From: Minisyncoccota bacterium
GTDB taxonomy: Bacteria > Patescibacteriota > Minisyncoccia > Moranbacterales > UBA2206
NCBI GenBank assembly: GCA_031291955.1
Contig: JARLIA010000005.1
Location: forward strand, 74,034 to 138,033
Reading direction: 5' to 3'
DNA: 64,000 nucleotides
Below the pieces are notes generated by a model that was not told the origin of the DNA, searched no databases, and was given only the letters and a program-made list of their open reading frames with translations. The translations under genes and the position numbers were made by a program. Each line of letters opens with the position of its first letter. The stretch's first letter is position 1. Shown in pieces: positions 3,116 to 49,393 of this stretch.

Positions 3116-3469
3116 ATGCGAGACATCCAAGAAGTTTATAATGAACTGCAGGAGAACAAAAAAGAGCAGAAAAGCATCAAGCGCGAATACAAGGACGCCT
3201 TGGTCAATGCCAACGAATATGAAGAGACGGTCGAGGAGACGAAAAAACTGCGCGAAAAGAAAAAGCAGATCGAGACTATGACTCAATCCCGTCTCGGTGC
3301 CCGCTGGGACGAATTCGAAACACTGAAAGCCAAGGCTGATGAACTGGCCCAAATGATGACCGATATCGCCATGAGCAATTTGGCTGAAGGCAAAACCATC
3401 GCCGTGAAAGACCAATTTGGGAATGACTATGAGCCGGTGTATAAAATTTCTTTCAAGAAGATCGGGTAA
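3116..3469 (+). CDS. Hypothetical charged, coiled-coil small protein (117 aa)
   Basis: It is a complete ORF in a clean intergenic context and is followed by a hairpin terminator. Confidence 0.45.
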   Translation: MRDIQEVYNELQENKKEQKSIKREYKDALVNANEYEETVEETKKLREKKKQIETMTQSRLGARWDEFETLKAKADELAQMMTDIAMSNLAEGKTIAVKDQFGNDYEPVYKISFKKIG

Positions 3470-3587
3470 CTCGGAATCATGGAGCGTGGAACAAAAACAC
3501 TACAGGGGGTAGTGTTTTTTGTTTGGGTGCATATTGAGTAGAGGCCTCTATGGAAGCCTCTATCTTTTAAAATAAAAAAAGTCCAGG

Positions 3588-3854: not shown

Positions 3855-5654
3855 TTACACTTCGATCACCACTGGCAGAACCATCGGTCGCCGCTCCGTC
3901 TTTTGGAAAAGGTAGAGGCCGACAACTTCGCGGATTTTGTCTTCGATGAATTTCTTTTCGACAGAAGTGTTCTTGGAAGTTGTTTCTTTGATGGCCTTTT
4001 GGATCTTGCGTTTGGCTTCGTTCACCAGGTCGAAGTTATCCTTGACGTAGATGAAGCCGCGGGAAGTGACTTGGATGTTGCCGACCACTTTTTTGGTCTT
4101 GCTGTCCAGAAGGATGGTGATGACAAACATTCCGTCTTCGGAAAGGACTTGGCGGTCGCGGAGAACCACCTGGCCGATGTCGCCGATGCCCAGTCCATCG
4201 ACAAAGACGTAGCTCGTGTCGACTTTTTTAGCCAGCACCCGGGCCACGCCCCGTTGTATTTCCAAAACATTTCCATTATCCAAAACGAAAATATTTTCCT
4301 TCCGAAAGCCGATATGTTCGGCCAGTTTGGCGGCCTCTTTCAGCATATAGTGGTTGGCGTAGACCGGTACGAAAATGTCCGGGCGGACCTGGCGCAGCAT
4401 CTCCTCGATATCCGGGGCGCTACAGTGTCCGCTGGTGTGGAGATCCATCAGATTGCCGTGGATGACATTGTCGCATTTCCGGTAAAGGTTGTCTTTCAGC
4501 CGTTGGATGGTGCGTTCGTTGCCTGGAATGACGGAAGAAGAGAAAATTATTGTGTCGGTCTTTTTTATTTTGACGTGGCGATCATTGTCGGTGATGATCC
4601 GGGAAAGCGCGGCGTTATCTTCACCCTGCGCTCCGGTGCAAATGACCACGATCCGGTTTTCCGGAAACTTTCCGATCTCGGAAACCGGAATGAGCGTCTC
4701 TTTATGCGCCTTGATATAGCCCAGGCTTTTGGCGATCTCCACGTTCATCTTCATGCTATATCCCATAAGCGCCACCTTCTTGCCGATTTTTTCGGAGTAT
4801 TCCAGGATATGCCCGATCCTTTTGATCTGGGAAGAAAACGTGCCGATAATGATTTTTCCGGAAGCGGCGCTGATCAGTTTTTCCAAATTGCGATACATCT
4901 CCGCTTCAGTGGTGCGGTTGGGATTGGTAACGATGGCGCCCAAGCTCTCCAGCATCAGGATGCGCGGACTGGGAAGTCCTGTCAGGTGATGATAGGAAAT
5001 CGTTTTGCCCGAAGCGCTGTCTTTTTCCATTGTCCAGTCCCCGGGATGAATGACCGTTCCATCGGGAGTGCGGATGATCACGCCGACCGCGTCCATGATG
5101 GAATGCTCGACTTCAAAGAACGAAATTTCAAATTTGCCCAAGCGTATTTTGTCATCGGCCGAAGCGACTCGTCTGGTTTTGAGATTTTGAGATGAACCTT
5201 TTTCAAAATCTTCCATCCTTCTTTTTACCATGGCGATAGTCAGGTCGCGGCCGATGATCGGCGGATAGCCCAAGCTCTTGAGCAGGATCGGCGCCGCGCC
5301 GATGTGGTCAAGATGGCCGTGGCTCAAGATGACGCCGCGGATGTTTTTTTCTTTCCCTTTCAGATAGCTGATATTGGGAATGATGTAGTCGATACCGGGC
5401 ATGTCTTCCTCAGGGAATTGGATGCCCATATCTAAAATCACGATATCTCCGGCGTATTCGAAGACCGTCATGTTGCGGCCGACTTCCTCGTTTCCTCCCA
5501 AGGGGATGATGCGCAAAGTATCTCTGGTCGAGCCATGTGCTGGACGTCGAGAAGGGGATGATTGTGATTTGGTTGGCTTATTATCAGTCGCGGGAATTGC
5601 GTCCATGTTGTGTGTCCGGCCATAATGGTCAGGTCTGTTTTTTGGCTTATGCAT
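3855..5654 (-). CDS. rnj: Ribonuclease J (metallo-beta-lactamase / beta-CASP family)
   Basis: Motifs present: HGHLDHIG, RIIPLGGNEEVGRNMTV, and the C-terminal VLPVVIEV. There is an N-terminal extension of about 45 aa. Confidence 0.9.
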   Translation of the reverse strand: MHKPKNRPDHYGRTHNMDAIPATDNKPTKSQSSPSRRPAHGSTRDTLRIIPLGGNEEVGRNMTVFEYAGDIVILDMGIQFPEEDMPGIDYIIPNISYLKGKEKNIRGVILSHGHLDHIGAAPILLKSLGYPPIIGRDLTIAMVKRRMEDFEKGSSQNLKTRRVASADDKIRLGKFEISFFEVEHSIMDAVGVIIRTPDGTVIHPGDWTMEKDSASGKTISYHHLTGLPSPRILMLESLGAIVTNPNRTTEAEMYRNLEKLISAASGKIIIGTFSSQIKRIGHILEYSEKIGKKVALMGYSMKMNVEIAKSLGYIKAHKETLIPVSEIGKFPENRIVVICTGAQGEDNAALSRIITDNDRHVKIKKTDTIIFSSSVIPGNERTIQRLKDNLYRKCDNVIHGNLMDLHTSGHCSAPDIEEMLRQVRPDIFVPVYANHYMLKEAAKLAEHIGFRKENIFVLDNGNVLEIQRGVARVLAKKVDTSYVFVDGLGIGDIGQVVLRDRQVLSEDGMFVITILLDSKTKKVVGNIQVTSRGFIYVKDNFDLVNEAKRKIQKAIKETTSKNTSVEKKFIEDKIREVVGLYLFQKTERRPMVLPVVIEV

Positions 5655-5691: not shown

Positions 5692-7506
5692 TTAAACTTC
5701 TATTACAACCGGCAGAATCATGGGTCTTCTTTCCGTTTTTTGGTAGAGATATTGGCCGACGACTTCCCGGATGTTGTTTTTGACGTAGTCCCAGTTGACG
5801 GCTTGGTCGGGAGAAGTTTTTTGGGCCACTACTTCTTCGACTTTTTTCTTGGTGGCGTTCACGAGATCAAAGTTTTCTTTCACAAAAATAAATCCGCGAG
5901 AAGTGACTTGAGGTTTCCCGATGATCTTTTTCGTTTTGCTGTCGATAACCACGGTGATGACAAACATCCCGTCTTTGGCCAGGAGCTGGCGGTCGCGCAG
6001 CACTACTTGTCCCACGTCGCCCACTCCCAGTCCGTCCACCATGACGTTGGAAAGCGGAATTTTTTCGTTGGTCACCTTGCCGTTGCTGCGATAATCTAAT
6101 TCGATGACCCGGCCGTTTTCGCCAATGAGAATTTTGTCTTCTTTCATTCCGACCGCGAGTCCCAGTTCGCCGTGGAGTTTCAGCATGAAATAGTTGCCAT
6201 GGACGGGAATCAAGTATTTCGGCCGGATGAGATTGATCATCATCTTGAGATCTTCCTGGCGCGCGTGACCGCCAGCGTGGACATCCATCATTTTATAGTT
6301 GATGACTTTGGCGTCGTGGCGATAGATCGTGTCCATAATTCCTTGGACCGTCCGTTCATTTCCCGGAATGACCGAAGACGAAAGGACGAAGGTGTCATTT
6401 TTGTGGACTTTTACGAACCGGTGTTCGCCATTGACGATCCGCATGAGGACCGCATTGGATTCGCCTTGCGAGCCGGTGCAGAGAATGGCCACTTTGTTGT
6501 CGGGATATTCATTGACTTTGGAAATAGGAATGAACGTATTCTTTTTAGTCTGGAGATATCCGAGCGAGCGGGCGATTTCTACATTGGTTTTCATGGAATA
6601 GCCGTCCACGGCCACTTTTCGGCCGTGTTTTTCGGCGGCCGCTACCACCGATTGGATGCGGCTAATGAGCGAGGAGAAGGTGGCAAAAATAAGGCGCCCC
6701 TCCCGGGTCTGTTCAAAGATCTCATCCAGGGTTTTGGCAATCTTGGATTCGGACAGGGAATATCCGGGTGTGCGCGAATCGGTCGAGTCGCTCATGAGGG
6801 CTAGGACATTTTCGCTGCCGAGCCGGGCGATCTTGGCCACGTCGGCCGGTGCGTCAGAGATGGGGGAATGATCGAACTTGAAATCACCAGTGTGGACCAC
6901 GGTGCCGACCGGCGTAGTGATGGCCAGGCCCACCGCGTCGGGGATGGTATGGTTGACGTGGAAAAATTCTATGGAAAACGACCCGAGCCGGATGCGGTCG
7001 ATTTTTTTGACGGTGTGAATATTGAGCGGAGCCTTGTCTTGGTAATCCTCTTGGCGTTTCATAACGATGCCGCGGGTCAGTTCGGTCATATAGATCGGAG
7101 GATTGCCGAGTTTTTCCATCAGGTGCGGAATGGCGCCGATGTGGTCATAGTGTCCATGGGTGATTAAAACGCCGCGGATGTTATTTTCTTTGCCTTTCAA
7201 GTACGTTACGTCCGGGATGAGATAATCGATGCCGGGCATGTCCTCGTCCGGGAATTGCAGTCCCATGTCGACGATGATGATGTCCTGGCCATACTCAAAA
7301 ACGGTCATATTGCGGCCAATCTCCTCGAGGCCACCGAGCGGAATGATCCGGAGACTAGGGTTGCCACGGCCAAAAACGTGCGCCGCTGGCTTTCTCTGGG
7401 CGATGACGCCGGTTTTTATGACCGGGGCAACAGCTAAACCAGTCTGGCCAAAGTCGGCCGGTTCCTTCGGTTTTCTGAACATAAATTTGGAAGTGAAGTT
7501 GCTCAT
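5692..7506 (-). CDS. rnj: Ribonuclease J, second paralog in tandem
   Basis: Motifs present: HGHYDHIG, RIIPLGGLEEIGRNMTV, and the same C-terminal ...ILPVVIEV. The listed ORF begins with TTG, so I placed the start at the first in-frame ATG. Confidence 0.9.
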   Translation of the reverse strand: MSNFTSKFMFRKPKEPADFGQTGLAVAPVIKTGVIAQRKPAAHVFGRGNPSLRIIPLGGLEEIGRNMTVFEYGQDIIIVDMGLQFPDEDMPGIDYLIPDVTYLKGKENNIRGVLITHGHYDHIGAIPHLMEKLGNPPIYMTELTRGIVMKRQEDYQDKAPLNIHTVKKIDRIRLGSFSIEFFHVNHTIPDAVGLAITTPVGTVVHTGDFKFDHSPISDAPADVAKIARLGSENVLALMSDSTDSRTPGYSLSESKIAKTLDEIFEQTREGRLIFATFSSLISRIQSVVAAAEKHGRKVAVDGYSMKTNVEIARSLGYLQTKKNTFIPISKVNEYPDNKVAILCTGSQGESNAVLMRIVNGEHRFVKVHKNDTFVLSSSVIPGNERTVQGIMDTIYRHDAKVINYKMMDVHAGGHARQEDLKMMINLIRPKYLIPVHGNYFMLKLHGELGLAVGMKEDKILIGENGRVIELDYRSNGKVTNEKIPLSNVMVDGLGVGDVGQVVLRDRQLLAKDGMFVITVVIDSKTKKIIGKPQVTSRGFIFVKENFDLVNATKKKVEEVVAQKTSPDQAVNWDYVKNNIREVVGQYLYQKTERRPMILPVVIEV

Positions 7507-7867
7507 AACGAGCAAACTTTGTTAGTTGCTGCGAATTGAAAATAATACGCGGCAATTTTGATTAAAGACTTTATTAATTCAAATCAAGCTATGATTTTTG
7601 AAGCAAAAGATTCAGAAATATTTTCCGAATTGAAGTGAAATAAAAAAAGTGGCGCCTTGATGAAGAGTTGAACTTCAAAGCCAAAAACTATTTTTTGACT
7701 ACTAACCTGTAAGGCAAAAGATTTTGCGAATAATACAAATAATACTAAAGAAGAAAACAAAAAGAAGACAAAAAGCGAAAGACGGAAGAAGAAGCTGATG
7801 AAGCTATTGTATCACAAGAGTATACACGAGGACAGGGAGAAAGTCAAGTCAAGTAGGATAATCAGGC

Positions 7868-23014: not shown

Positions 23015-26000
23015 ATGGACAAAATCATCATAAAAGGCGCGCGGGAGCATAATTTGAAGAACGTCGACTTGGAGCTGCCGCGGAATAAATTTATCGTTTT
23101 TACGGGAATTTCTGGGTCAGGGAAGTCGACCATGGCTTTTGATACTATTTTTGCCGAGGGGCAACGGCGCTATCTCGAAAGTCTTTCCAGTTACGCTCGG
23201 CAGTTTTTGGGGCAAATGAATAAGCCTGACGTGGACTATATTGAAGGTCTGTCGCCGGCCATTTCCATCGACCAGAAAGCGGCGTCCCACAATCCGCGTT
23301 CGACGGTTGGAACGGTGACGGAAATCCACGATTATTTGCGATTGCTATATGCCAAGATCGGCCGGCCACATTGTCCGATCTGCTCCCGGGAAATTACGAA
23401 GTTGTCGACAGATGAGATTGTTGATCGGATTTTGGAGATGTGCGCCGCGAAACCTCATCCGCCCCGGAGTACTGGGGCACCTTCTCCTTATAAAGGAGAA
23501 GGAGATAATGGAAGGGGCTGTTCTATCGAAATTCTATCGCCGGTGGTTCGCCAGCGGAAAGGGGAATATTCGACGATGCTGGCTGAGATGTTCCGGCGGG
23601 GGTTTTCCCGCGCTTACGTCAATGGGGAAAAATACGAACTGTCGGCCAAGATCGGAGACGAGTTGGAATTGGCCCGCTACAAAAAACATAATATTGATAT
23701 CGTGGTAGATGAGGTGGAGATATCTAGCGACAACATTTCGCGAATATTTGAAGGAGTGGAAAAGGCGCTGAAGTTGTCGGACGGACTGGTCAAGATAAGA
23801 TCCGAAATCCGAAATACGAAATCCGAAACAATGTCAAAATCAAAAATTAAAAATTCAAAACAAAACAATACGGAAATTGTTTTCAACCAAAAACTTTCTT
23901 GTCCGATCCATGAGATTGAGTTTCCGGAGTTGGAGCCGCGTTTGTTTTCTTTCAACAGTCCGTTTGGCGCTTGTCCGGCTTGCGAAGGATTGGGAACGAA
24001 AAAAGAAATCGACCCGGCGCTGGTGGCGCCGGATAAAAACAAAACGATTGCTGAGGGTGGCATCTTCCCTTGGAGCTACAAACGGAATAACTGGCAAGGG
24101 TCGGTTCTCCGGGCGGTTTGCAATCATTTCCACATCAAAGACAATGTGCGCCTCCGTGACCTTTCGGAAGATGACCTCAACATCTTAATGTTCGGCGGAC
24201 CGGATGCGACCGATATGATAGATAAGGAAGAAGCGGAAGAAATACCCGTCACTTTGAAATCAAAAACCGGTTCAAGCTGGAAATATTACATGACCTGGCG
24301 CGGAGCGGTCGGATATCTTCAAGATCGATATTTCAAGACCGATTCGGATGCGGTGCGGGCGGATATTGAAAAATATATGTCGCAAAATCCGTGTTCGGTC
24401 TGTCACGGCGCGCGTTACAAAAAAGAAGTCTTGCTGGTGACGGTCGGCGAATCCCGCCCGCAACGCTTCGCTAACGCAAGTGTTAGCTTGCGTAGCGATG
24501 CGGGCGGGAAAAATATTGTCGAAGTCTCAAATGTGTCTGTGGCTGAGACGCTTAAATTTTTCGAAAGACTGGAATTGAATAAAAATGAGCAGATCATCGC
24601 CGGGAGAATTTTGAAGGAAATTATTAATCGCCTAGGCTTTTTGGAAAACGTGGGACTGGGATATTTGACTTTGGCCAGATCCGCGGCGACACTAGCCGGC
24701 GGGGAAGCGCAACGGATCCGCTTGGCATCGCAAATCGGTTCGGGTCTCACCGGCGTTTTGTATATTTTGGACGAACCGTCGGTCGGTCTTCACTCGCGCG
24801 ACAACACTAAATTGCTCGAGACGCTTTTTCATCTGCGCGATCTGGGAAACACGCTAATCGTGGTTGAGCACGATGAAGAGACGATGCGGGAGGCCGACTA
24901 TTTGGTTGACATCGGACCGGGAGCGGGAAAATTGGGAGGTAAAATTGTGGCGCATGGCACGCCGGTAGAAGTTATTCGCGATAAAAAATCTTTAACCGCG
25001 GCATATTTGCGGGGTGACGCGAAAATAGAAATGCCGAAATTCCGCCGGCCAGTCAAGAATAAAAAAACGATTGTTGTCCGCGGCGCGCGCGAACACAATT
25101 TGAAAAACATTACCGTCGAGTTTCCTTTAAAAGTTTTGACGTGTGTGACGGGCGTGTCCGGCTCGGGGAAATCCACATTGGTAGAGGACATCCTTTATAA
25201 AGCCTTGGCGTCAAAAATCATGCGGACGCTCGACCGGCCGGGGAAACATTCGGAGATTGTCGGCACGCAATATGTTAACAAAGTGATCATGATCGACCAG
25301 TCGCCGATCGGTCGGACGCCGCGCTCCAATCCGGCGACTTATACCGGGCTCTTTACGCCGATCCGGGAATTATTTTCCCAGACCCGGGACGCCAAATCCA
25401 AGGGTTATGGTCCGGGGCGCTTTTCGTTCAACATCCGGGGCGGACGCTGTGACAACTGCCAAGGCGACGGCCAGCTTAAAATTGAGATGCAGTTCATGCC
25501 GGATGTCTATTTGCCTTGCGATGTCTGTCACGGAAAAAGATACAACAGTGAGACCTTGAAAGTGAAATACAAGGACAAAAACATTTCCGAAGTTTTGGAC
25601 ATGACGGTCAGCGAAGGGCGCGAGTTTTTTGAGAATTTTCCGGCTATTCACGACAAGCTGGCGGTTTTGGAAGACGTCGGCTTGGGCTATATCCAACTCG
25701 GGCAGTCCGCCACCACACTTTCCGGCGGGGAAGCGCAAAGGATAAAACTGGCCACGGAACTGGCAAGGAGGGCGACCGGCGACACTTTGTATATTCTGGA
25801 CGAACCGACGACTGGCCTCCATTTTGACGACATTAAAAAACTTTTGAATGTTTTGAACCGCTTGGTCGATGCCGGCAACACAGTGGTGGTGATCGAACAC
25901 AATTTGGACGTCGTCAAAACCGCCGATTGGATCATTGACTTGGGTCCGGAAGGCGGAGAAGGCGGCGGAAAAATTATCGTTACCGGTCCGCCGGAAGAAG

Positions 26001-26062
26001 TGGCGAAATATCATAAGGAAAGCTGGACGGGAAAGTATCTGAGAGATGTATTGAAAAAGTAG
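23015..26062 (+). CDS. uvrA: Excinuclease ABC subunit A, with two in-frame palindrome-bearing insertions
   Basis: Both ABC modules are present ([18 protein letters not shown]) with LSGGEAQRI signatures and Zn-finger Cys pairs. Length is 1015 aa. Confidence 0.95.
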   Translation: MDKIIIKGAREHNLKNVDLELPRNKFIVFTGISGSGKSTMAFDTIFAEGQRRYLESLSSYARQFLGQMNKPDVDYIEGLSPAISIDQKAASHNPRSTVGTVTEIHDYLRLLYAKIGRPHCPICSREITKLSTDEIVDRILEMCAAKPHPPRSTGAPSPYKGEGDNGRGCSIEILSPVVRQRKGEYSTMLAEMFRRGFSRAYVNGEKYELSAKIGDELELARYKKHNIDIVVDEVEISSDNISRIFEGVEKALKLSDGLVKIRSEIRNTKSETMSKSKIKNSKQNNTEIVFNQKLSCPIHEIEFPELEPRLFSFNSPFGACPACEGLGTKKEIDPALVAPDKNKTIAEGGIFPWSYKRNNWQGSVLRAVCNHFHIKDNVRLRDLSEDDLNILMFGGPDATDMIDKEEAEEIPVTLKSKTGSSWKYYMTWRGAVGYLQDRYFKTDSDAVRADIEKYMSQNPCSVCHGARYKKEVLLVTVGESRPQRFANASVSLRSDAGGKNIVEVSNVSVAETLKFFERLELNKNEQIIAGRILKEIINRLGFLENVGLGYLTLARSAATLAGGEAQRIRLASQIGSGLTGVLYILDEPSVGLHSRDNTKLLETLFHLRDLGNTLIVVEHDEETMREADYLVDIGPGAGKLGGKIVAHGTPVEVIRDKKSLTAAYLRGDAKIEMPKFRRPVKNKKTIVVRGAREHNLKNITVEFPLKVLTCVTGVSGSGKSTLVEDILYKALASKIMRTLDRPGKHSEIVGTQYVNKVIMIDQSPIGRTPRSNPATYTGLFTPIRELFSQTRDAKSKGYGPGRFSFNIRGGRCDNCQGDGQLKIEMQFMPDVYLPCDVCHGKRYNSETLKVKYKDKNISEVLDMTVSEGREFFENFPAIHDKLAVLEDVGLGYIQLGQSATTLSGGEAQRIKLATELARRATGDTLYILDEPTTGLHFDDIKKLLNVLNRLVDAGNTVVVIEHNLDVVKTADWIIDLGPEGGEGGGKIIVTGPPEEVAKYHKESWTGKYLRDVLKK

Positions 26063-27407: not shown

Positions 27408-30221
27408 ATGCCCACTCAAAAATCTTCTCCTAAAAATACTTTCTCACTGAAGGATAAAATCGTCATCCGTGGCGCGCGGGTGAATAATTTGAAGAACATC
27501 GACGTGGACATTCCGCGGGATAAATTGGTCGTAGTGACAGGTCTTTCCGGGTCGGGGAAATCTTCTTTGGCTTTTGACGTGGTCTACGCCGAAGGCAATC
27601 GGCGGTATCTGGAAGGCATGTCGAGCTACGCCCGGCAGTTTTTGGATGTTTCGGCTAAACCGGACGTGGACAAAATAGAGAATTTGAGCCCGACCATCTC
27701 AATTGATCAAAAAAGCTTGAGTCGTTCACCTCGCTCGACGGTCGGGACGCTCACGGAAATTTACGATTATTTGCGAGTGCTCTACGCCAAAGTGGGAACG
27801 CCCTATTGTCCTCATTGTCTCTTGCCGATGGGGCGCAAAAAGAACCAGGAAATTTTGGAGGAAATTTTGGTTTTGCCGGAAAATACCCAAGTGGCGGTCC
27901 TGGCTCGGATAAAAAATGAAGGTCAGAGTGTTAAGGATATTCTCAAAAACATCAGTCAGCTTGGTTATGCCCGGGCGCGGGTTGGCGGTAAAATCGTCTT
28001 GATTGCCGACGCCTTGCTTTTTCCGGAAGAAAACTTGAGCGGCAACGTCGAAATCGTGGTTGACCGGATCAATCTCAAGAAAAAAAATCCCGATCACGAA
28101 CGGATGTTGGATTCTATTGAGACTGCTTTTAAATTGGGGAAAGGTTTTATGGCGGTCGCAATCGATAATGGTGAGAGCCGGATTTATAATCAAAATTTTG
28201 TTTGCAGCAACTGCTATTTCAAAATTTCGGAAATCACGCCCAAGAATTTTTCTTTCAACAGTCCCGAAGGCGCCTGCGAACATTGCGCGGGAATGGGTAC
28301 TATCCAGGAAGTGGACGAGGATCTGATCATTCCTAACAGAAATCTCACTTTGGCCGAAGGAGCTATTATGCCGCTCGCCAAGTCCGGCGGCCGGGCTGGG
28401 TATCTCGATACTCTCACCAAGATCGGCGAGAAAGCGGGTTTTTCCGTGAATGAACCGGCGCGGAACATTTCCAAGGAAAATTTGAAAGTTATTTTTCATG
28501 GTTTTGGTGTGCCTGGTACTCCTGGTTATTTTGAGGGAGTGGTGCCGATGATTCGAAAAAAATATACCGAAGCGGCCACTCAGACGGCCCGGACCGACAT
28601 CGAAAAATATATGCTGGAAAAAGATTGTCCCGAGTGTGGAGGCAAGCGTTTGAAAAAAGAATATTTATCCGTCTTGATGAGCGGGAAATCGATCGACGAT
28701 TTGGTCCGGATGGATATCGATACTCTCATTTTATTTTTAGAAAATTTACGGACTGCCGATTTGAGTGCCGCCAAAGCGGAAATCGTGGCGCCATTGGCAA
28801 AAGAAATGATCGCCAAAGCCAAGGCGCTCAAGAACGTCGGCTTGGAATATCTGTCACTTTCCCGCCGGGCCGATTCCATTTCCGGCGGCGAAGGTCAGCG
28901 CATCCGGCTCGCAACTCAAATTGGATCGGAACTTTCCGGTATTATCTATGTTCTGGACGAACCGTCTATCGGTCTCCATTCCCGAGACAATGAAAAGTTG
29001 ATCGACACGATGGAAAAGCTGAAAGAGAACGGCAATTCTCTGATCGTGGTCGAGCATGACAAAGACATTATCGAGTGCGCCGATTGGGTGATCGACATGG
29101 GTCCCGGGGCAGGGGAGTTCGGCGGGGAAGTTATCTTTTCCGGTTCGGTGAAAAAAATGGAGAGCGTCGCGACATCCACTGCCAAGTTCCTTTCCGGCCG
29201 GGAAAAAGTAACGGTTAAGAAGAAACCGCGAACGGCATCGAAGAACTTTTTGGAAATCCTGGGTGCCGCAGAACACAATTTGAAAAATATCGACGTCCGG
29301 ATTCCACTCGGCCGTTTTGTTGCCGTCTCGGGCGTGTCCGGTTCGGGGAAATCCACTTTGGTAACCGACATTCTGGCTCGAGAGCTGGCCCGGCATTTTT
29401 GGAAGGCTAAGAAAAATCCCGGAAAGCATGATAAAATCACTGGTCTTAACCGCTTGGATAAAGTGATTAATATCGATCAATCGCCGATCGGCCGGACGCC
29501 GCGTTCCAATGCCGCCACCTACACCGGTGTCTTTTCACTTATTCGGGAACTTTTCTCCGCCACCGAAGAGGCGAAAAAACGGGGCTACGATGCCAGTCGC
29601 TTCAGTTTTAATGTCCGGGGCGGCCGTTGCGAAGATTGCCAAGGCGACGGAACAAAAAAGATCGAGATGCATCTTTTGCCGGATATGTATGTCAAATGCG
29701 AAACTTGCCAGGGAACGCGCTATAACGCCAAGACGCTTGATATTGAATATCAGGGTGCTACCGTCGCCCAGGTGCTGGATATGAGTGTTTCCTACGCGCT
29801 TCGCTTTTTCCATAAATCGCCGCTTATCGCGGCTAAACTGAAAACGCTGGAAGAAGTCGGCCTGGGCTACATCAAACTGGGACAGAGCGCCACAAATCTT
29901 TCCGGCGGAGAAGCGCAGCGGATAAAATTGGCTACCGAGCTCGCCCGGAAATCGACCGGCAAGACTTTGTATATTTTAGATGAACCGACCATCGGGTTGC
30001 ACTTTGAAGATGTGCGGAAATTGCTTCAGGTGCTGGACGCGCTGGTCGAAAAAGGCAACACTGTTCTTGTGGTGGAACATAATTTGGACGTCATCAAGAA
30101 CGCCGACTGGGTGATTGATCTCGGGCCGGAAGGCGGAAACGGGGGCGGCGAAATTGTTTACGCCGGCGAACCGAAGGGGCTGAAGAAAGCGAAGAGGAGT
30201 TGGACAGGAAAATATCTGTAA
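27408..30221 (+). CDS. uvrA: Excinuclease ABC subunit A paralog (937 aa) without palindromic insertions
   Basis: Full two-module UvrA architecture is present ([18 protein letters not shown], two LSGGE signatures). Confidence 0.9.
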
Positions 30222-46811: not shown

Positions 46812-47296
46812 TGGACCTCAATATAAACGGCGAAAATTTAAAAAATTTTTTCAAGTGGAGCAACGTCCGGGAAGGTTTTTTCGACTTTTTGGGACGCTGG
46901 GCTAAGTTGCTCTTACTTCTTCTGGCTGTTGCAGGCACGGCCTATTGTGTTTATCTTTGGTATATTTTTATTTATAATCCCGGTTGGAGCGATGTCCAAA
47001 AGCAGCACTATATCCAGACGAAAGGCCAGGGAGTTGTTTTTGACCAAGCCAAATTCAACGCTCTGGTGACGGTTGCCAAGAACCGGGACGTCGCCGAAAA
47101 ACAAGCGCTGACTAACGTGCTGGACATCTTTCGCCTGAAGTCGCTGATTGTGCCGCCCGGCGCGTCTGATTCCAGCACTACTCCCGCCGCCAATCCGCCC
47201 GCCAATTCCGCCACCACGTCCGACTCCAGCGCTGCTCCAGTCGCCAAGTCGCCAGCTTCCAGCCCGCCAGTCGTGGCGAGTCCTTCCGGAAACTAA
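46811..47296 (+). CDS. Hypothetical membrane protein with a Pro/Ser/Ala-rich tail (possible PilP-like component)
   Basis: One TM segment is followed by a low-complexity PAS-rich C-terminus. Position alone suggests a pilus role. Confidence 0.4.
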   Translation: MDLNINGENLKNFFKWSNVREGFFDFLGRWAKLLLLLLAVAGTAYCVYLWYIFIYNPGWSDVQKQHYIQTKGQGVVFDQAKFNALVTVAKNRDVAEKQALTNVLDIFRLKSLIVPPGASDSSTTPAANPPANSATTSDSSAAPVAKSPASSPPVVASPSGN

Positions 47297-47330
47297 AAAA
47301 CAATCCCGCCATGGAATTGTTTTTTTGTCG

Positions 47331-47620
47331 CGTGCGCCCTGAGGGATTCGAACCCCCGACCCCTTGGTCCCCCGCCTGCCACGCCGTGCCCTCGTCAGGA
47401 CTCGAACCTGAAACGCTTGTTCCGAAGACAAGTGTGATATCCCCGCCTGCCTACGCCTGTGCCCCCTAAAGGAATCGAACCTTTAACCTTCTGGTCCGAA
47501 GCCAGACGCTCTATCCATTGAGCTAAAGGGGCGCAGGCATAGGCGGGCACGGCGTTTCACCACGAGGGCGTGTACGGCGGGCAGGGAAGCCAAGTACTCT
47601 ATCCACTGAGCTAAGGGCGC
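47331..47620 (-). other. Nested tRNA-like array: two matched 5'/3' tRNA half pairs bracket tRNA-Arg(TCG) and are joined by long GC-rich helices
   Basis: The outer 5' half GCGCCCTTAGCTCAGTGGATAGAGTACTTGG (47619 downward) matches the 3' half CCAAGGGGTCGGGGGTTCGAATCCCTCAGGGCGCA (47368-47333). A middle pair has acceptor GCCCTCG / CGAGGGC, D-stem GTGA/TCAC, and anticodon arm CTTGTCTTCGGAACAAG. GC-rich inverted repeats flank each layer. Confidence 0.3.
47459..47531 (-). tRNA. tRNA-Arg (anticodon TCG)
   Basis: It is a canonical 73-nt cloverleaf: acceptor GCCCCTT/AGGGGGC, D-arm GCTCAATGGATAGAGC, anticodon loop CTTCGGA, T-loop TTCGATT. Confidence 0.8.
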
Positions 47621-47705
47621 ATAAATACATTCTGGCATTTCTTGGTAATTCCGTCCAGCGCGGATACGTAATTAATTACGTACGCAGTTGATAAGACTAA
47701 TAAAA

Positions 47706-47730
47706 ATGACCGGCAGTCCGGTCATTTTAT
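47706..47730. terminator. Bidirectional hairpin terminator (GACCGG-CAGT-CCGGTC) inside the tRNA cluster
   Basis: An inverted repeat with T/A-rich flanks lies between tRNA-His and the nested tRNA array. Confidence 0.4.
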
Positions 47731-47740
47731 CATGCTCTAT

Positions 47741-47813
47741 GGGCGGTCACTGGGAGTTGAACCCAGCTTCTCGGTACCACAAACCGATGTCTTACCGATA
47801 GACGATGACCGCC
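47741..47813 (-). tRNA. tRNA-His (anticodon GTG)
   Basis: An 8-bp acceptor including G-1 (GGCGGTCA/TGACCGCC) is present. The anticodon loop is TTGTGGT, the T-loop is TTCAACT, and the discriminator is C. Confidence 0.8.
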
Positions 47814-47819
47814 ATATTG

Positions 47820-47892
47820 TGCGCCCACCAGGGCTCGAACCTGGGACCGTTTGCTTAAGAGGCAACTGCTCTACCAACTGAGCTATGGGCGC
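47820..47892 (-). tRNA. tRNA-Lys (anticodon CTT)
   Basis: Acceptor GCGCCCA/TGGGCGC. D-arm GCTCAGTTGGTAGAGC. Anticodon loop CTCTTAA. T-loop TTCGAGC. Confidence 0.85.
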
Positions 47893-47937
47893 GAAAAATA
47901 AAACATTTTAATATGTTCGAATGTTAATATGCTTTTG

Positions 47938-48010
47938 TGCGCCGAGCAGGAATCGGACCTGCGACCAAAAGGTTAGAAACCTTCTGCTCTATCCACTGAG
48001 CTACCGGCGC
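47938..48010 (-). tRNA. tRNA-Arg (anticodon TCT)
   Basis: Acceptor GCGCCGG/TCGGCGC. Anticodon loop TTTCTAA. The T-loop TCCGATT is atypical. Confidence 0.8.
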
Positions 48011-48082
48011 GGGATTCCCGACACACTCAAAATACTAGCGCATTTTAAGCCATTAGTCAACATCGGGACGTTTTCACAATTA

Positions 48083-49393
48083 TTACAAACCGTGCGCTTT
48101 TTTGTAAGCGTTCCACTGTTTGACTGACCAGGCGACCGGTTTTTCAGTTATGATGGTTGGTTGTTGGCCGGGATGGGGATAAAGGGAGGGCGATTTGTAA
48201 TTGCTTTTGAAATCATCCTGGAACATCAGCGCTCCGGTCTTGTCATAGACTTCCTGGGTCCAGACGGTCTTCATGGAGCCATCCGGGTTGCGCTCCAGGA
48301 TGGTTGGCCCGACGGTTTTAACTGTCCGTCCGTCATTGGTCCCATAAAAATCGAAAATCAATTGGGTGCCGACGACCCTTGTTTGGATAAGAATATAACC
48401 GGGTGTGTTGTTGACAAATTTAAGATCCGGAGCGGGGATATAGACAGTGGCGTCGGTACCTTGAGGACTATAATATCCGACTGGATAAGCGTGGTTTTCG
48501 CGCGCGGTTATTTTGAGGCCGGTATTGACGGCTGCTCGGAAAGCGGTAGTGGAAACTTGGCACATGCCGCCGCCGTATTCGGGGATGGTGGCGTTGCCGA
48601 CGATGGAAAGTTCCGGCAGATAGCCGTGCTCGGCGTCCACTGGCCCCAAGGTATTCAAGAAAGAAAATTCTTCATTCGGCTTTATCAATGTTCCGTTGAA
48701 TTTGGCGGCCCCGGTTTCAAGATTGATCACCCTGTTATGCGGAGAGCCGACGAAGTTGGATACGCCTTCACCGATGAGGCTGGTAACGCCCATTTTGCCG
48801 GCTAGGTCGGCAGTGACGGTCGGTTGGGTGGTTATAAAGGGCAAAGTCAGGGCGGTGGCCGGATGGTCTTCTTGCAAATAATTTTCGAGAATGGCGACAG
48901 TTTTGGTTTGGTCAATGGCGATACCGGAACTGCTCAAGGAAAAGGCGGTTATTTTTCCGTCAGTCACCTCGAAGGTGGCGTTCTGGGCGGCCTTGTCGGT
49001 TTCTTTGGTTAAAGTATTTTTCACATAATCAGTCAGTTTGTTTTTATCAAGACTTAACGTTGTAATTTTTTGGATGTGACTTTGGTTCGCGTAGGAAAAA
49101 GTCAGTTGACAGATGGCGCTATTTTCATATGGGCAATAGGCGGTGTCAGCCATCTCGCTTGAATATTCCGGATTATATTTAAGTTCAGTCTTTTCGTTGA
49201 GCCAACCCAGAATAGCGGCTTTGTTTGTGGCGTACGGCGTTTTGTTGACACTCAAGGTGATTTTGTCCGGCAGTTTGGCGGCAAAAGTTTCCTCGTCCAT
49301 TTTGCCGAGAGTGATTTCCTGGGCGCGGCAAAATCCTGGTGAAAGGGCCAGGCAAACAAACAAAACAGCCAAAGTGTGCTTCGCTAATTTCAT
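48083..49393 (-). CDS. VanW-family secreted protein
   Basis: A signal peptide is present (MKLAKHTLAVLFVCLALSPGFCRA). The VanW core GGGMCQVSTTAFRAAVNTGLKITARENH is present. Start trimmed to the internal ATG. Confidence 0.8.
   Translation of the reverse strand: MKLAKHTLAVLFVCLALSPGFCRAQEITLGKMDEETFAAKLPDKITLSVNKTPYATNKAAILGWLNEKTELKYNPEYSSEMADTAYCPYENSAICQLTFSYANQSHIQKITTLSLDKNKLTDYVKNTLTKETDKAAQNATFEVTDGKITAFSLSSSGIAIDQTKTVAILENYLQEDHPATALTLPFITTQPTVTADLAGKMGVTSLIGEGVSNFVGSPHNRVINLETGAAKFNGTLIKPNEEFSFLNTLGPVDAEHGYLPELSIVGNATIPEYGGGMCQVSTTAFRAAVNTGLKITARENHAYPVGYYSPQGTDATVYIPAPDLKFVNNTPGYILIQTRVVGTQLIFDFYGTNDGRTVKTVGPTILERNPDGSMKTVWTQEVYDKTGALMFQDDFKSNYKSPSLYPHPGQQPTIITEKPVAWSVKQWNAYKKAHGL

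Follow-up and report, generated by a model that had tools for sequence, protein, structure and literature searches.

Nested tRNA-Arg(UCG) genes in a Minisyncoccota genome

In the genome of a Minisyncoccota bacterium, a stretch of 64 kb (contig JARLIA010000005.1, positions 74,034 to 138,033; referred to in its full length as the window) carries on its minus strand, at 47620-47333, three tRNA-Arg(UCG) genes located one within another in a unit of 288 nt. Only the inner tRNA is complete; the D-loop of the middle tRNA is interrupted, as is the outer tRNA between the anticodon bases 35 and 36. This arrangement is real and not a product of chance, and it is one case of a large family of small hairpin cassettes carrying tRNA genes. 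Both inserts of the window belong to this family by their fixed ends, the complete tRNA they enclose, their position in a loop and a host of the same anticodon. The architecture, the order of insertion, the fixed termini, the same-anticodon rule, the restriction to loop sites and the mixed fate of the interrupted hosts can be read directly from the DNA. On balance, we lean towards a non-autonomous hairpin cassette which disrupts a tRNA gene and at the same time supplies its replacement, and which does so repeatedly, the innermost tRNA being the working copy.

The inner tRNA-Arg(UCG) (47460-47532), presumed to be the working gene, does not encode CCA. Its description as a canonical tRNA in an initial annotation of the sequence was confirmed by ARAGORN and Rfam (calls at 47532-47459/47460; RF00005, 73.3 bits), apart from coordinates that were off by one base, and all strings quoted there lie on the minus strand where they had been placed. 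The middle tRNA begins with a 5' exon (47553-47569, GCCCTCG TG GTGA AACG), whose boundary is ambiguous by one G, and is completed by a 3' exon (47387-47441) comprising GATA TCAC, the anticodon arm CTTGT-CTTCGGA-ACAAG, T-arm, acceptor and discriminator A. The 3' two-thirds of this layer give a sub-threshold Rfam tRNA match (47455-47393, 24.5 bits), and in silico excision of 47552-47442 leads to an ARAGORN call of tRNA-Arg(tcg), every reasonable D-loop junction yielding a tRNA; an intact copy of the gene exists in a relative (L055). The outer tRNA is composed of a 5' exon covering positions 1-35 of the molecule (47586-47620; acceptor, D-arm, stem CTTGG and loop CTTC) and a 3' exon (47333-47370; GGA, CCAAG, variable loop, T-arm, acceptor and discriminator A). 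Excision of 47585-47371 again results in tRNA-Arg(tcg) by ARAGORN, with the junction CTTC/GGA forming the loop CTTCGGA that is also present in the inner and middle layers. The outermost molecule, initially annotated as tRNA-like with its halves flanking the rest of the unit, thus keeps this position and can be specified as a tRNA-Arg(UCG) after excision. Its reading as tRNA-Gly(UCC) by way of a junction CTTCC/GA was rejected, as the loop is CTTCGGA in both intact orthologues (L056 and L004) and the rest of the molecule is of the Arg type.

Each layer features a cloverleaf, a 7-bp acceptor, a 7-nt anticodon loop and the G18G19/TPsiC elements, and intact natural counterparts of the layers score 61-70 bits. 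When stretches of the same lengths were excised at random, a tRNA spanning the junction was called in 4/4000 and 14/4000 cases (0.1-0.35%). Moreover, the 788-bp intergenic region does not differ at a single base in an independent Logan assembly (L001). ARAGORN in intron mode misses the shells, since a tRNA is contained in the inserts or their site is not in the anticodon loop; at lowered stringency it returns nothing but a spurious tRNA-Pro over the outer 3' half. A permissive Rfam search over the region gave tRNA matches, and besides these only spurious microRNA and plastid untranslated-region matches to the hairpin or to antisense tRNA.

The two inserts are designated cassettes A and B. In cassette A, the 5' terminal arm CCTGCCCGCC (47576-47585), identical to the family consensus terminus, and the spacer GTACAC (47570-47575; GAACAC in L055) precede the middle tRNA, which is followed by the spacer CGGCGT (47381-47386) and the 3' terminal arm GGCAGGCGGG (47371-47380). 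Cassette B encloses the inner tRNA with the 5' arm CCGTGCCCGCC (47542-47552), the spacer TATGCCTGC (47533-47541), which pairs with 47459-47452, the 3' spacer CAGGCGTA (47452-47459) and again the arm GGCAGGCGGG (47442-47451). Cassette A matches the family consensus exactly, cassette B carries one additional G in its 5' arm, and both reside in tRNA-Arg(UCG) hosts; the non-tRNA part of the insert amounts to 32 nt in cassette A and 38 nt in cassette B. For the entire unit, a fold of -149.7 kcal/mol is predicted, in which the concentric acceptor stems are linked by long GC helices.

Insertion history in related genomes

The synteny of the VanW gene and the tRNA genes for Arg-UCU, Lys and His is kept in relatives, and the slot that follows them contains zero, one or two insertions. 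In L056 (VanW 74% identity), it is occupied by an uninterrupted tRNA-Arg(UCG) of the outer type with the loop CTTCGGA (6711-6785). In L055 (VanW 82% identity), the outer gene is split between C35 and G36 by CCTGCCCGCC-GAACAC, the intact middle tRNA and CGGCGT-GGCAGGCGGG. The window features the state of L055 and, within the D-loop of its middle tRNA, a further cassette, reading AACG/CCGTGCCCGCC-TATGCCTGC, the inner tRNA and CAGGCGTA-GGCAGGCGGG/GATA. All junctions are exact, with an ambiguity of 1 nt for the second insertion only, and a target-site duplication is absent, as CTTC/GGA in L056 corresponds to CTTC(CCTG...CGGG)GGA in L055 and the window. The ancestral gene of the slot was therefore an ordinary tRNA-Arg(UCG), the present outer layer; the cassette with the middle tRNA was then inserted precisely between anticodon bases 35 and 36, without target duplication, and the cassette with the inner tRNA later entered the D-loop of the middle tRNA.

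The empty site of L056 proves insertion: the gene there is single and uninterrupted, not one of the simple tandem tRNAs that the initial annotation had named as a possible sign of decayed duplicates. Its suggestion of a nested insertion of palindromic elements into tRNA genes turned out to be essentially right, given the series of zero, one and two insertions by one cassette family. The subsequent duplication it had added found no support. Pairwise identity between the layers is only 64-75%, and other genomes carry each type as an ordinary single gene (outer type in L004 and L018, middle type in L011, L013, L016 and L022, inner type in L005 and L006), hence the layers are not local duplicates.

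Further tRNA-associated features were observed in these relatives. L055 contains a small open reading frame (ORF; MDWLLYIPRSKSRPDKIYIGSTNDTERRLADHNRG..., ~6925-7250, minus strand) that is GIY-YIG-like by its motif and has an intact tRNA-Lys(CUU) on one side and a decayed copy of a Lys-like tRNA on the other; it is a putative second and different tRNA-associated mobile element in the same operon. In L016 (7950-8260, minus strand), a middle-type tRNA-Arg(UCG) is flanked by the variant arms CCAGCCCGC ... GGCGGGCAGG, and ahead of it lies GTTCTTAGCTTAGTGAATA, the decayed 5' fragment of an outer-like gene; this tRNA is therefore a guest with a degenerated host.

A family of tRNA-carrying cassettes

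A pattern derived from the shared arm cores and the T-arm was used to scan Joint Genome Institute (JGI) metagenomes, resulting in more than 120 loci, with 121 matches analysed; the figures given for hosts, guests and termini of the family apply among the matches listed. A complete tRNA lies between the arms in 113 of the 121, and the guests comprise the isotypes Thr, Arg, Pro, Val, Leu, Gln, Gly, Ala, Ile, Trp, Cys and Asn. The 8 matches without tRNA occur in GC-rich DNA, like both matches in the viral collection, and the contigs of the real matches have a median of 41% GC. A scan of viral contigs with the family pattern provided these 2 tRNA-less matches, in DNA of ~60% GC, which served as chance baseline and offer no phage vector, and a search of phage DNA revealed ordinary tRNA similarity only. 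Proteins encoded next to four nests match proteins named Moranbacteria, Niyogibacteria, Uhrbacteria and Magasanikbacteria, or fall into one cluster with them at 90% identity; all carriers with a named relative belong to the Patescibacteria.

The general layout of the cassette is 5'-CC(G)TGCCCGCC, spacer, tRNA, spacer, GGCAGGCGGG-3'. Outside the bases enforced by the pattern, CCT before the 5' core is conserved in 94% and G after the 3' core in 92% of the matches, and conservation collapses beyond; the termini therefore measure 10 nt, 5'-CCUGCCCGCC ... GGCAGGCGGG-3'. Arms and spacers form a single helix in exact register, with 77.7% of positions paired compared with 28-46% when slid, and the spacers covary, the observed score being reached by 0/500 shuffles. 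For this purpose a column-wise count of pairs was used, since a test of spacer duplex energy against mismatched partners discriminates only weakly owing to the shared spacer consensus. The arms do not vary over their 10 bp, not even at the U.G of pair 3 and the C.A mismatch of pair 7, as expected of ends that act at the DNA level. In 88/92 elements the first inserted base pairs with the last, and there are no bulges at the junctions. Within the helix, G.U and A.C are equally frequent (75 vs 75, no excess), and the hairpin is equally good on both strands.

Versions without cargo but with the same ends exist as well, at a length of 20-60 nt. One recurrent element of ~36 nt, CCTGCCCGCAATGCTNCGCATAGCGTTGCAGGCGGG, has the same termini and is located outside recognisable tRNAs (L066 2291-2326, L084 1225-1260 and L136 1013-1052 on the plus strand; L145 and L158 on the minus strand).

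Hosts, guests and insertion sites

Nearly every element lies within another tRNA. Excision of a single insert reconstructed 56 hosts, 43 of which have exactly the anticodon of their guest, the other 13 being over-long or ambiguous calls; the same-anticodon rule thus holds for 43/43 cleanly reconstructed hosts. Identity between host and guest ranges from 63 to 97%, with a mean of 77%. The insertion sites are loop positions and specific for the isoacceptor: the D-loop in Arg-CCU, -UCU, -CCG and -GCG, Thr and Leu, the 35/36 site in Arg-UCG, Pro and Thr-UGU, the 37/38 site in Val-CAC, the 34/35 site in Cys and Asn, and the T-loop 56/57 site in Gln and Gly-CCC.

The fate of the hosts is mixed. About half of them are pristine, and the rest are truncated, mismatched or full of further hairpins; about 40 of the 113 (put at about 40%) cannot be restored, while their guests are intact. 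Truncated hosts were found in L100, L124, L127 and L095/L132 and mismatched halves in L155, and the stand-alone tRNAs of L006 and L011 retain 3'-arm remnants only. Of 57 unresolved hosts, only about 5-9 could be rescued by taking out another one or two hairpins. Such extra hairpins were found in hosts that also hold a guest. Stand-alone tRNAs interrupted solely by a cargo-less mini or a perfect hairpin were not credibly detected in 1.39 Mb, a data set biased towards nests.

An independent three-level doll of tRNA-Arg(UCG) genes occurs in L119 (minus strand, reverse-complement offsets ~2586-2990). Its decay grows outwards: the inner tRNA is perfect, the 3' half of the middle tRNA no longer matches the 5' half, and the outer layer features a hairpin in the D-loop, a cargo-less mini in the T-loop and a malformed anticodon arm. 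In L140 (plus strand, ~2262-2407), a tRNA-Thr(UGU) host is interrupted at its 35/36 position by two inserts in tandem, one a cassette with a tRNA and the other a cargo-less mini. Other small GC hairpins are present in the host shells of L066, L077, L107, L153, L157 and L114 (TCCGCC-N3-GGCGGA, (T)CAGCC-N3-5-GGCTGA, CCCCGAC...GTCGGGG), and a perfect palindrome of 20 nt, CCTGCCTGCCGGCAGGCAGG, is shared by L095 and L107.

Proposed replacement of the host gene and alternative explanations

According to the favoured explanation, the locus would have received two successive arrivals of a small non-autonomous tRNA cassette. Such a cassette forms a hairpin rich in GC and bounded by fixed inverted ends of 10 nt, and its tip carries a complete tRNA with the anticodon of the target gene. 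The whole unit would be transcribed as one RNA, in which arms and spacers may zip into a helix of ~18 bp with each layer folding separately, and RNase P, RNase Z and the CCA-adding enzyme would free the innermost tRNA as the working tRNA-Arg(UCG). The two shells would be former resident genes, interrupted and dispensable, and their still pristine state in the window would mean that the insertions are young or that the block was recently exchanged between lineages. A cassette would persist only where its cargo replaces the broken gene, and this requirement would explain the strictness of the same-anticodon rule; spread between related genomes probably proceeds by recombination through the conserved tRNA exons. 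The same-anticodon rule, the decayed hosts and the occurrence of extra hairpins only in hosts suggest that hosts are usually not rescued. What we infer here concerns the layers that mature, the way in which the cassette moves and the recognition of its ends.

Several observations weigh against replacement. The helix closes exactly at the insertion junction, as it would in an intron, and in dead shells insertions could lie anywhere, yet all of them are found in loops (D-loop, positions 34-38 and T-loop 56/57, depending on the isoacceptor). All stems are intact in both shells of the window, and the 36 non-redundant intact hosts have 21.4 stem pairs compared with 21.6 in the guests. The outer gene of L055 encodes CCA. 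Although about 45% of four-fold sites differ between the window and L055 (synonymous divergence, dS, 0.7-1.2), the outer shells differ at 4/74 positions, all structure-neutral and including a compensatory 31:39 pair, and the cassette arms and spacers at 1/32; the differences in outer shell and arms follow the pattern of functional tRNAs. Moreover, among the matches listed, cassettes with a tRNA were encountered only within a host tRNA, and insertion would therefore be targeted or homology-dependent; we know of no enzyme for such an insertion of cassettes of this kind. Besides, the scan pattern limited the length of the guests, and hairpin-bearing guests would escape it.

The low divergence can be read in two ways. 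The middle tRNA is identical in the window and L055 (0/72 differences), and promoter block, shells, arms and middle tRNA show a uniformly low divergence of ~4%, which may reflect either purifying selection on the interrupted gene or an exchange of the block long after the lineages split. The uniformity, which includes the presumably neutral promoter spacer, favours late exchange and fits a block younger than the split of the genomes; the compensatory 31:39 pair favours purifying selection.

A possible, though rather unlikely, alternative consists in bacterial introns of a new type, with a terminal helix recognised by a putative endonuclease and ligase, so that outer, middle and inner tRNA-Arg(UCG) would all mature. 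Such introns would account for the confinement to loops at isoacceptor-specific positions, the pairing of first and last bases in 88/92 elements without target duplication, the invariant termini including two non-Watson-Crick pairs, and shells that are structurally perfect in the window, L055 and 36 other hosts. The same is true for an outer shell evolving like a functional tRNA across a dS of ~1, with the compensatory pair and only 1/32 differences in the arms, for the CCA encoded by the outer gene of L055 and for the tandem of cassette and mini at one 35/36 site in L140. However, the same-anticodon rule (43/43) would be unnecessary if splicing restored the host, about 40% of the hosts are degraded next to intact guests, hairpin-only interruption was not found among stand-alone tRNAs, the helix lacks an asymmetry indicative of an RNA strand, and none of the 40 window ORFs scanned is a candidate for the enzyme. 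It is doubtful whether the Patescibacteria possess a third, protein-dependent class of bacterial introns. This class would be defined by the 10-bp terminal helix CCUGCCCGCC/GGCAGGCGGG, in which a U.G and a C.A are conserved, and by a putative endonuclease-ligase acting on D-, anticodon- and T-loops; the cargo tRNA would be freed too, and one transcript would give rise to three mature tRNA-Arg(UCG).

Cleavage without ligation, as in the intervening sequences (IVSs) of rRNA, is improbable here. RNase III would cut the GC helix, hosts interrupted in the D- or T-loop would persist as two-piece tRNAs, and those interrupted in the anticodon loop, such as the outer layer, would be destroyed. The continuous helix of ~18 bp has a length that is typical for RNase III substrates, and the cargo-less minis share the same ends. 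In addition, the rRNA genes of the candidate phyla radiation (CPR) hold many short ORF-less insertions at stem-loop tips, which are presumed to be RNase III-processed IVSs (PMC11270868). Against this stands that there is no evidence for functional split tRNAs in bacteria, and that both the same-anticodon guests in D- and T-loop hosts and the conservation of the termini in sequence, and not just in structure, would be left unexplained. A function of the 288-nt unit as one structured RNA apart from tRNA supply, for example as tRNA-like regulator or decoy, is very unlikely. The initial annotation had listed a large tRNA-like structured RNA, which finds no support besides the very stable predicted fold, to which the conserved upstream palindrome and promoter-like block might be added; the layers vary from one to three between close relatives, hosts decay freely in other lineages, and Rfam matches tRNA alone. 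Finally, three similar tRNA-Arg(UCG) genes within 290 bp could point to tandem duplicates scrambled by rearrangement or decay, or to a mis-assembly, given that metagenome assemblies can be chimeric. This explanation is effectively refuted by the identical independent assembly, the precise empty and half-filled sites in relatives, more than 100 independent nests with the same termini, the identity of only 64-75% between the layers and the rarity of tRNAs among random excisions.

Genomic surroundings

The window has a GC content of about 47% and encodes type IV pilus genes, TsaD, VanW, UvrABC, GroEL and glycogen enzymes, with Moranbacteria/Parcubacteria (Patescibacteria/CPR) as closest neighbours; an identical copy of a neighbouring protein carries the label 'Candidatus Pacebacteria bacterium' in a metagenome-assembled genome at NCBI. 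On the minus strand, the nest is preceded by VanW, a promoter (48060-48032), tRNA-Arg(UCU), tRNA-Lys(CUU), tRNA-His(GUG) and a terminator (47728-47703). Between this terminator and the nest, an upstream block (47629-47682, minus strand) contains the perfect 18-bp palindrome TACGTAATTAATTACGTA (47682-47665), a -35-like TGGACG (47657-47652) and, at a spacing of 17 nt, a -10-like CAGAAT (47634-47629), by which the start would fall at about +1 of the outer tRNA. The promoter scan did not flag the block at 47629-47682 as a consensus sigma-70 site; it is possibly a regulated promoter of the nested unit's own. The upstream 72-nt block differs at 6/72 positions between the window and L055 (92% conserved), although ordinary spacers can no longer be aligned. 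L056 lacks the block, and its outer tRNA starts 19 nt after tRNA-His. On the other side of the nest, a hairpin with T/A runs (47292-47328) looks like a bidirectional intrinsic terminator by its inverted repeat (I1) and sequence, although it was not listed by the terminator scan, and it would close both the nested unit and the convergent pilus operon.

In a Pfam screen of 40 large ORFs of the 64-kb window, domains of a splicing endonuclease, an RNA ligase, a reverse transcriptase or a transposase were not found; for these 40 ORFs, the result includes EndA-family endonuclease, RtcB-type ligase and Y1/HUH transposase domains. The arm motif as a dispersed repeat of the window was likewise rejected, since only one other exact 11-mer exists, in coding-looking sequence.

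Some further features of the region were noted. Two tandem full-length RNase J paralogs are encoded at 3855-5654 and 5692-7515 (minus strand), and two UvrA paralogs (23015-26062 and 27408-30221) flank uvrC. Downstream of the pilus-operon homologue p161, a long (AG)n microsatellite varies in length between assemblies (L050 ~4693-4725, L051 ~3433-3484 and L053 ~931-957, each beginning with (AG)n and reading downstream into the p161 homologue), and L052 contains, from ~1005, the downstream p161 sequence only, without (AG)n. In L050-L054, which are relatives of P0002, no tRNAs were found beside the pilus gene.

Implications

Provided that replacement applies, the cassettes would represent a new selfish strategy, in which an element is tolerated in an essential single-copy gene by carrying a spare copy, and repeated insertions would leave a readable stack of former genes. 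The tRNA genes of ultra-small bacteria would then be a site of continual lateral allele replacement, which could bear on the escape from tRNA-targeting toxins and on the minimal tRNA set of reduced genomes. If the inserts were introns instead, they would reveal an undescribed protein-dependent tRNA splicing in bacteria, with a bearing on the origin of archaeal and eukaryal tRNA introns. In either case, standard tRNA finders detect the innermost gene only and overlook the shells, and the fixed 10-nt ends offer a simple handle for locating every copy and for designing RNA experiments.

Comparison with known systems

Group I introns possess a conserved catalytic core (P3-P9) of ~200 nt or more, and group II introns consist of six domains, measure at least several hundred nt and in many cases contain an ORF for a reverse transcriptase. 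No group I intron was matched by Rfam in 47150-48150 at E<=10, and a group II intron was rejected because of incompatible size, a lacking Rfam match and the lack of a reverse-transcriptase domain among 40 window ORFs. Bulge-helix-bulge (BHB) introns are spliced within two bulges of 3 nt that have a helix of 4 bp between them (hBHBh' or relaxed). This geometry is not that of the cassettes, in which the helix runs from the junction with only one C.A mismatch (92 elements; the minimum-free-energy fold of the window is the same). The intron-containing tRNA genes proposed in the initial annotation thus agree with the data in loop sites, helices closing at the junctions and lack of target duplication, and disagree in the missing group I signal and BHB geometry. 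Terminal inverted repeats, as in miniature inverted-repeat transposable elements (MITEs), are present, CCTGCCCGCC and the reverse complement of GGCAGGCGGG being identical at 8/10 positions, and no target-site duplication was found on comparing the empty L056 with the filled L055 and window. A repetitive extragenic palindromic (REP)-like element was rejected within the 64 kb, as the arm motif occurs only in the nest and in a single coding-sequence match. As in rRNA IVSs, an extended hairpin replaces the loop of a structured RNA gene.

Archaeal BHB tRNA introns (the non-canonical, multiple and 'transposed' introns of Thermoproteales) resemble the cassettes as short protein-free inserts in D-, anticodon- and T-loops with a junction helix, several per gene and related across tRNAs. 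The Haloferax tRNA-Trp intron with its C/D-box RNA likewise offers a precedent for an intron carrying another functional RNA. In contrast to the archaeal introns, the nests are bacterial, have a blunt helix at the junction, sequence-conserved termini, same-anticodon tRNA cargo and many decayed hosts, and they are known here from DNA sequence. Closer in host range are the bacterial group I introns of tRNA anticodon loops, which in Patescibacteria are found even at the 35/36 site, also without target duplication; a survey of 95 complete Patescibacteria genomes reports only group I introns (PMC13011429). The cassettes differ from these by comprising only 32-41 nt of non-tRNA sequence, lacking a group I core and using D- and T-loop sites as well.

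Split and permuted tRNAs (Nanoarchaeum equitans, Caldivirga, Cyanidioschyzon merolae) share separated halves joined by GC-rich complementary flanks; they depend on archaeal or eukaryal splicing, whereas in the bacterial nests a further complete tRNA is enclosed by the halves. Among palindromic elements, REP sequences and bacterial interspersed mosaic elements, MITEs and Correia elements are alike in that their inverted ends are short, imperfect and rich in GC, that copies of 20-40 nt lack a cargo and that related genomes hold many copies. The cassettes deviate from them in the absence of target duplication and of a visible partner transposase, in their sites within loop-coding sequence and in the complete tRNA, and the copies of the window lie only inside the nest. 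Literature searches on the motif and on nested, interrupted and intron-encoded tRNAs returned no description, and the family of tRNA-in-tRNA cassettes appears to be undescribed.

Two systems come nearest in their logic. Prophages, genomic islands and integrative and conjugative elements that integrate into tRNA genes also break the gene and bring a replacement, so that insertion is harmless; they are kilobase-long and restore the 3' part by an integrase att site, whereas here a whole tRNA of ~73 nt is supplied and no integrase is present. The rRNA IVSs and the short ORF-less rRNA insertions of the CPR are, like the cassettes, GC-rich, ORF-less hairpins at loop tips with sporadic occurrence and lateral spread, and their removal at the RNA level by RNase III is presumed (PMC11270868); the cassettes are set apart by the tRNA target, the fixed 10-nt termini, the tRNA cargo and the recursive nesting. 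By analogy, the cassettes would work most like a combination of both, joining the hairpin of the rRNA IVSs with the disrupt-and-restore logic of the tRNA-integrating elements.

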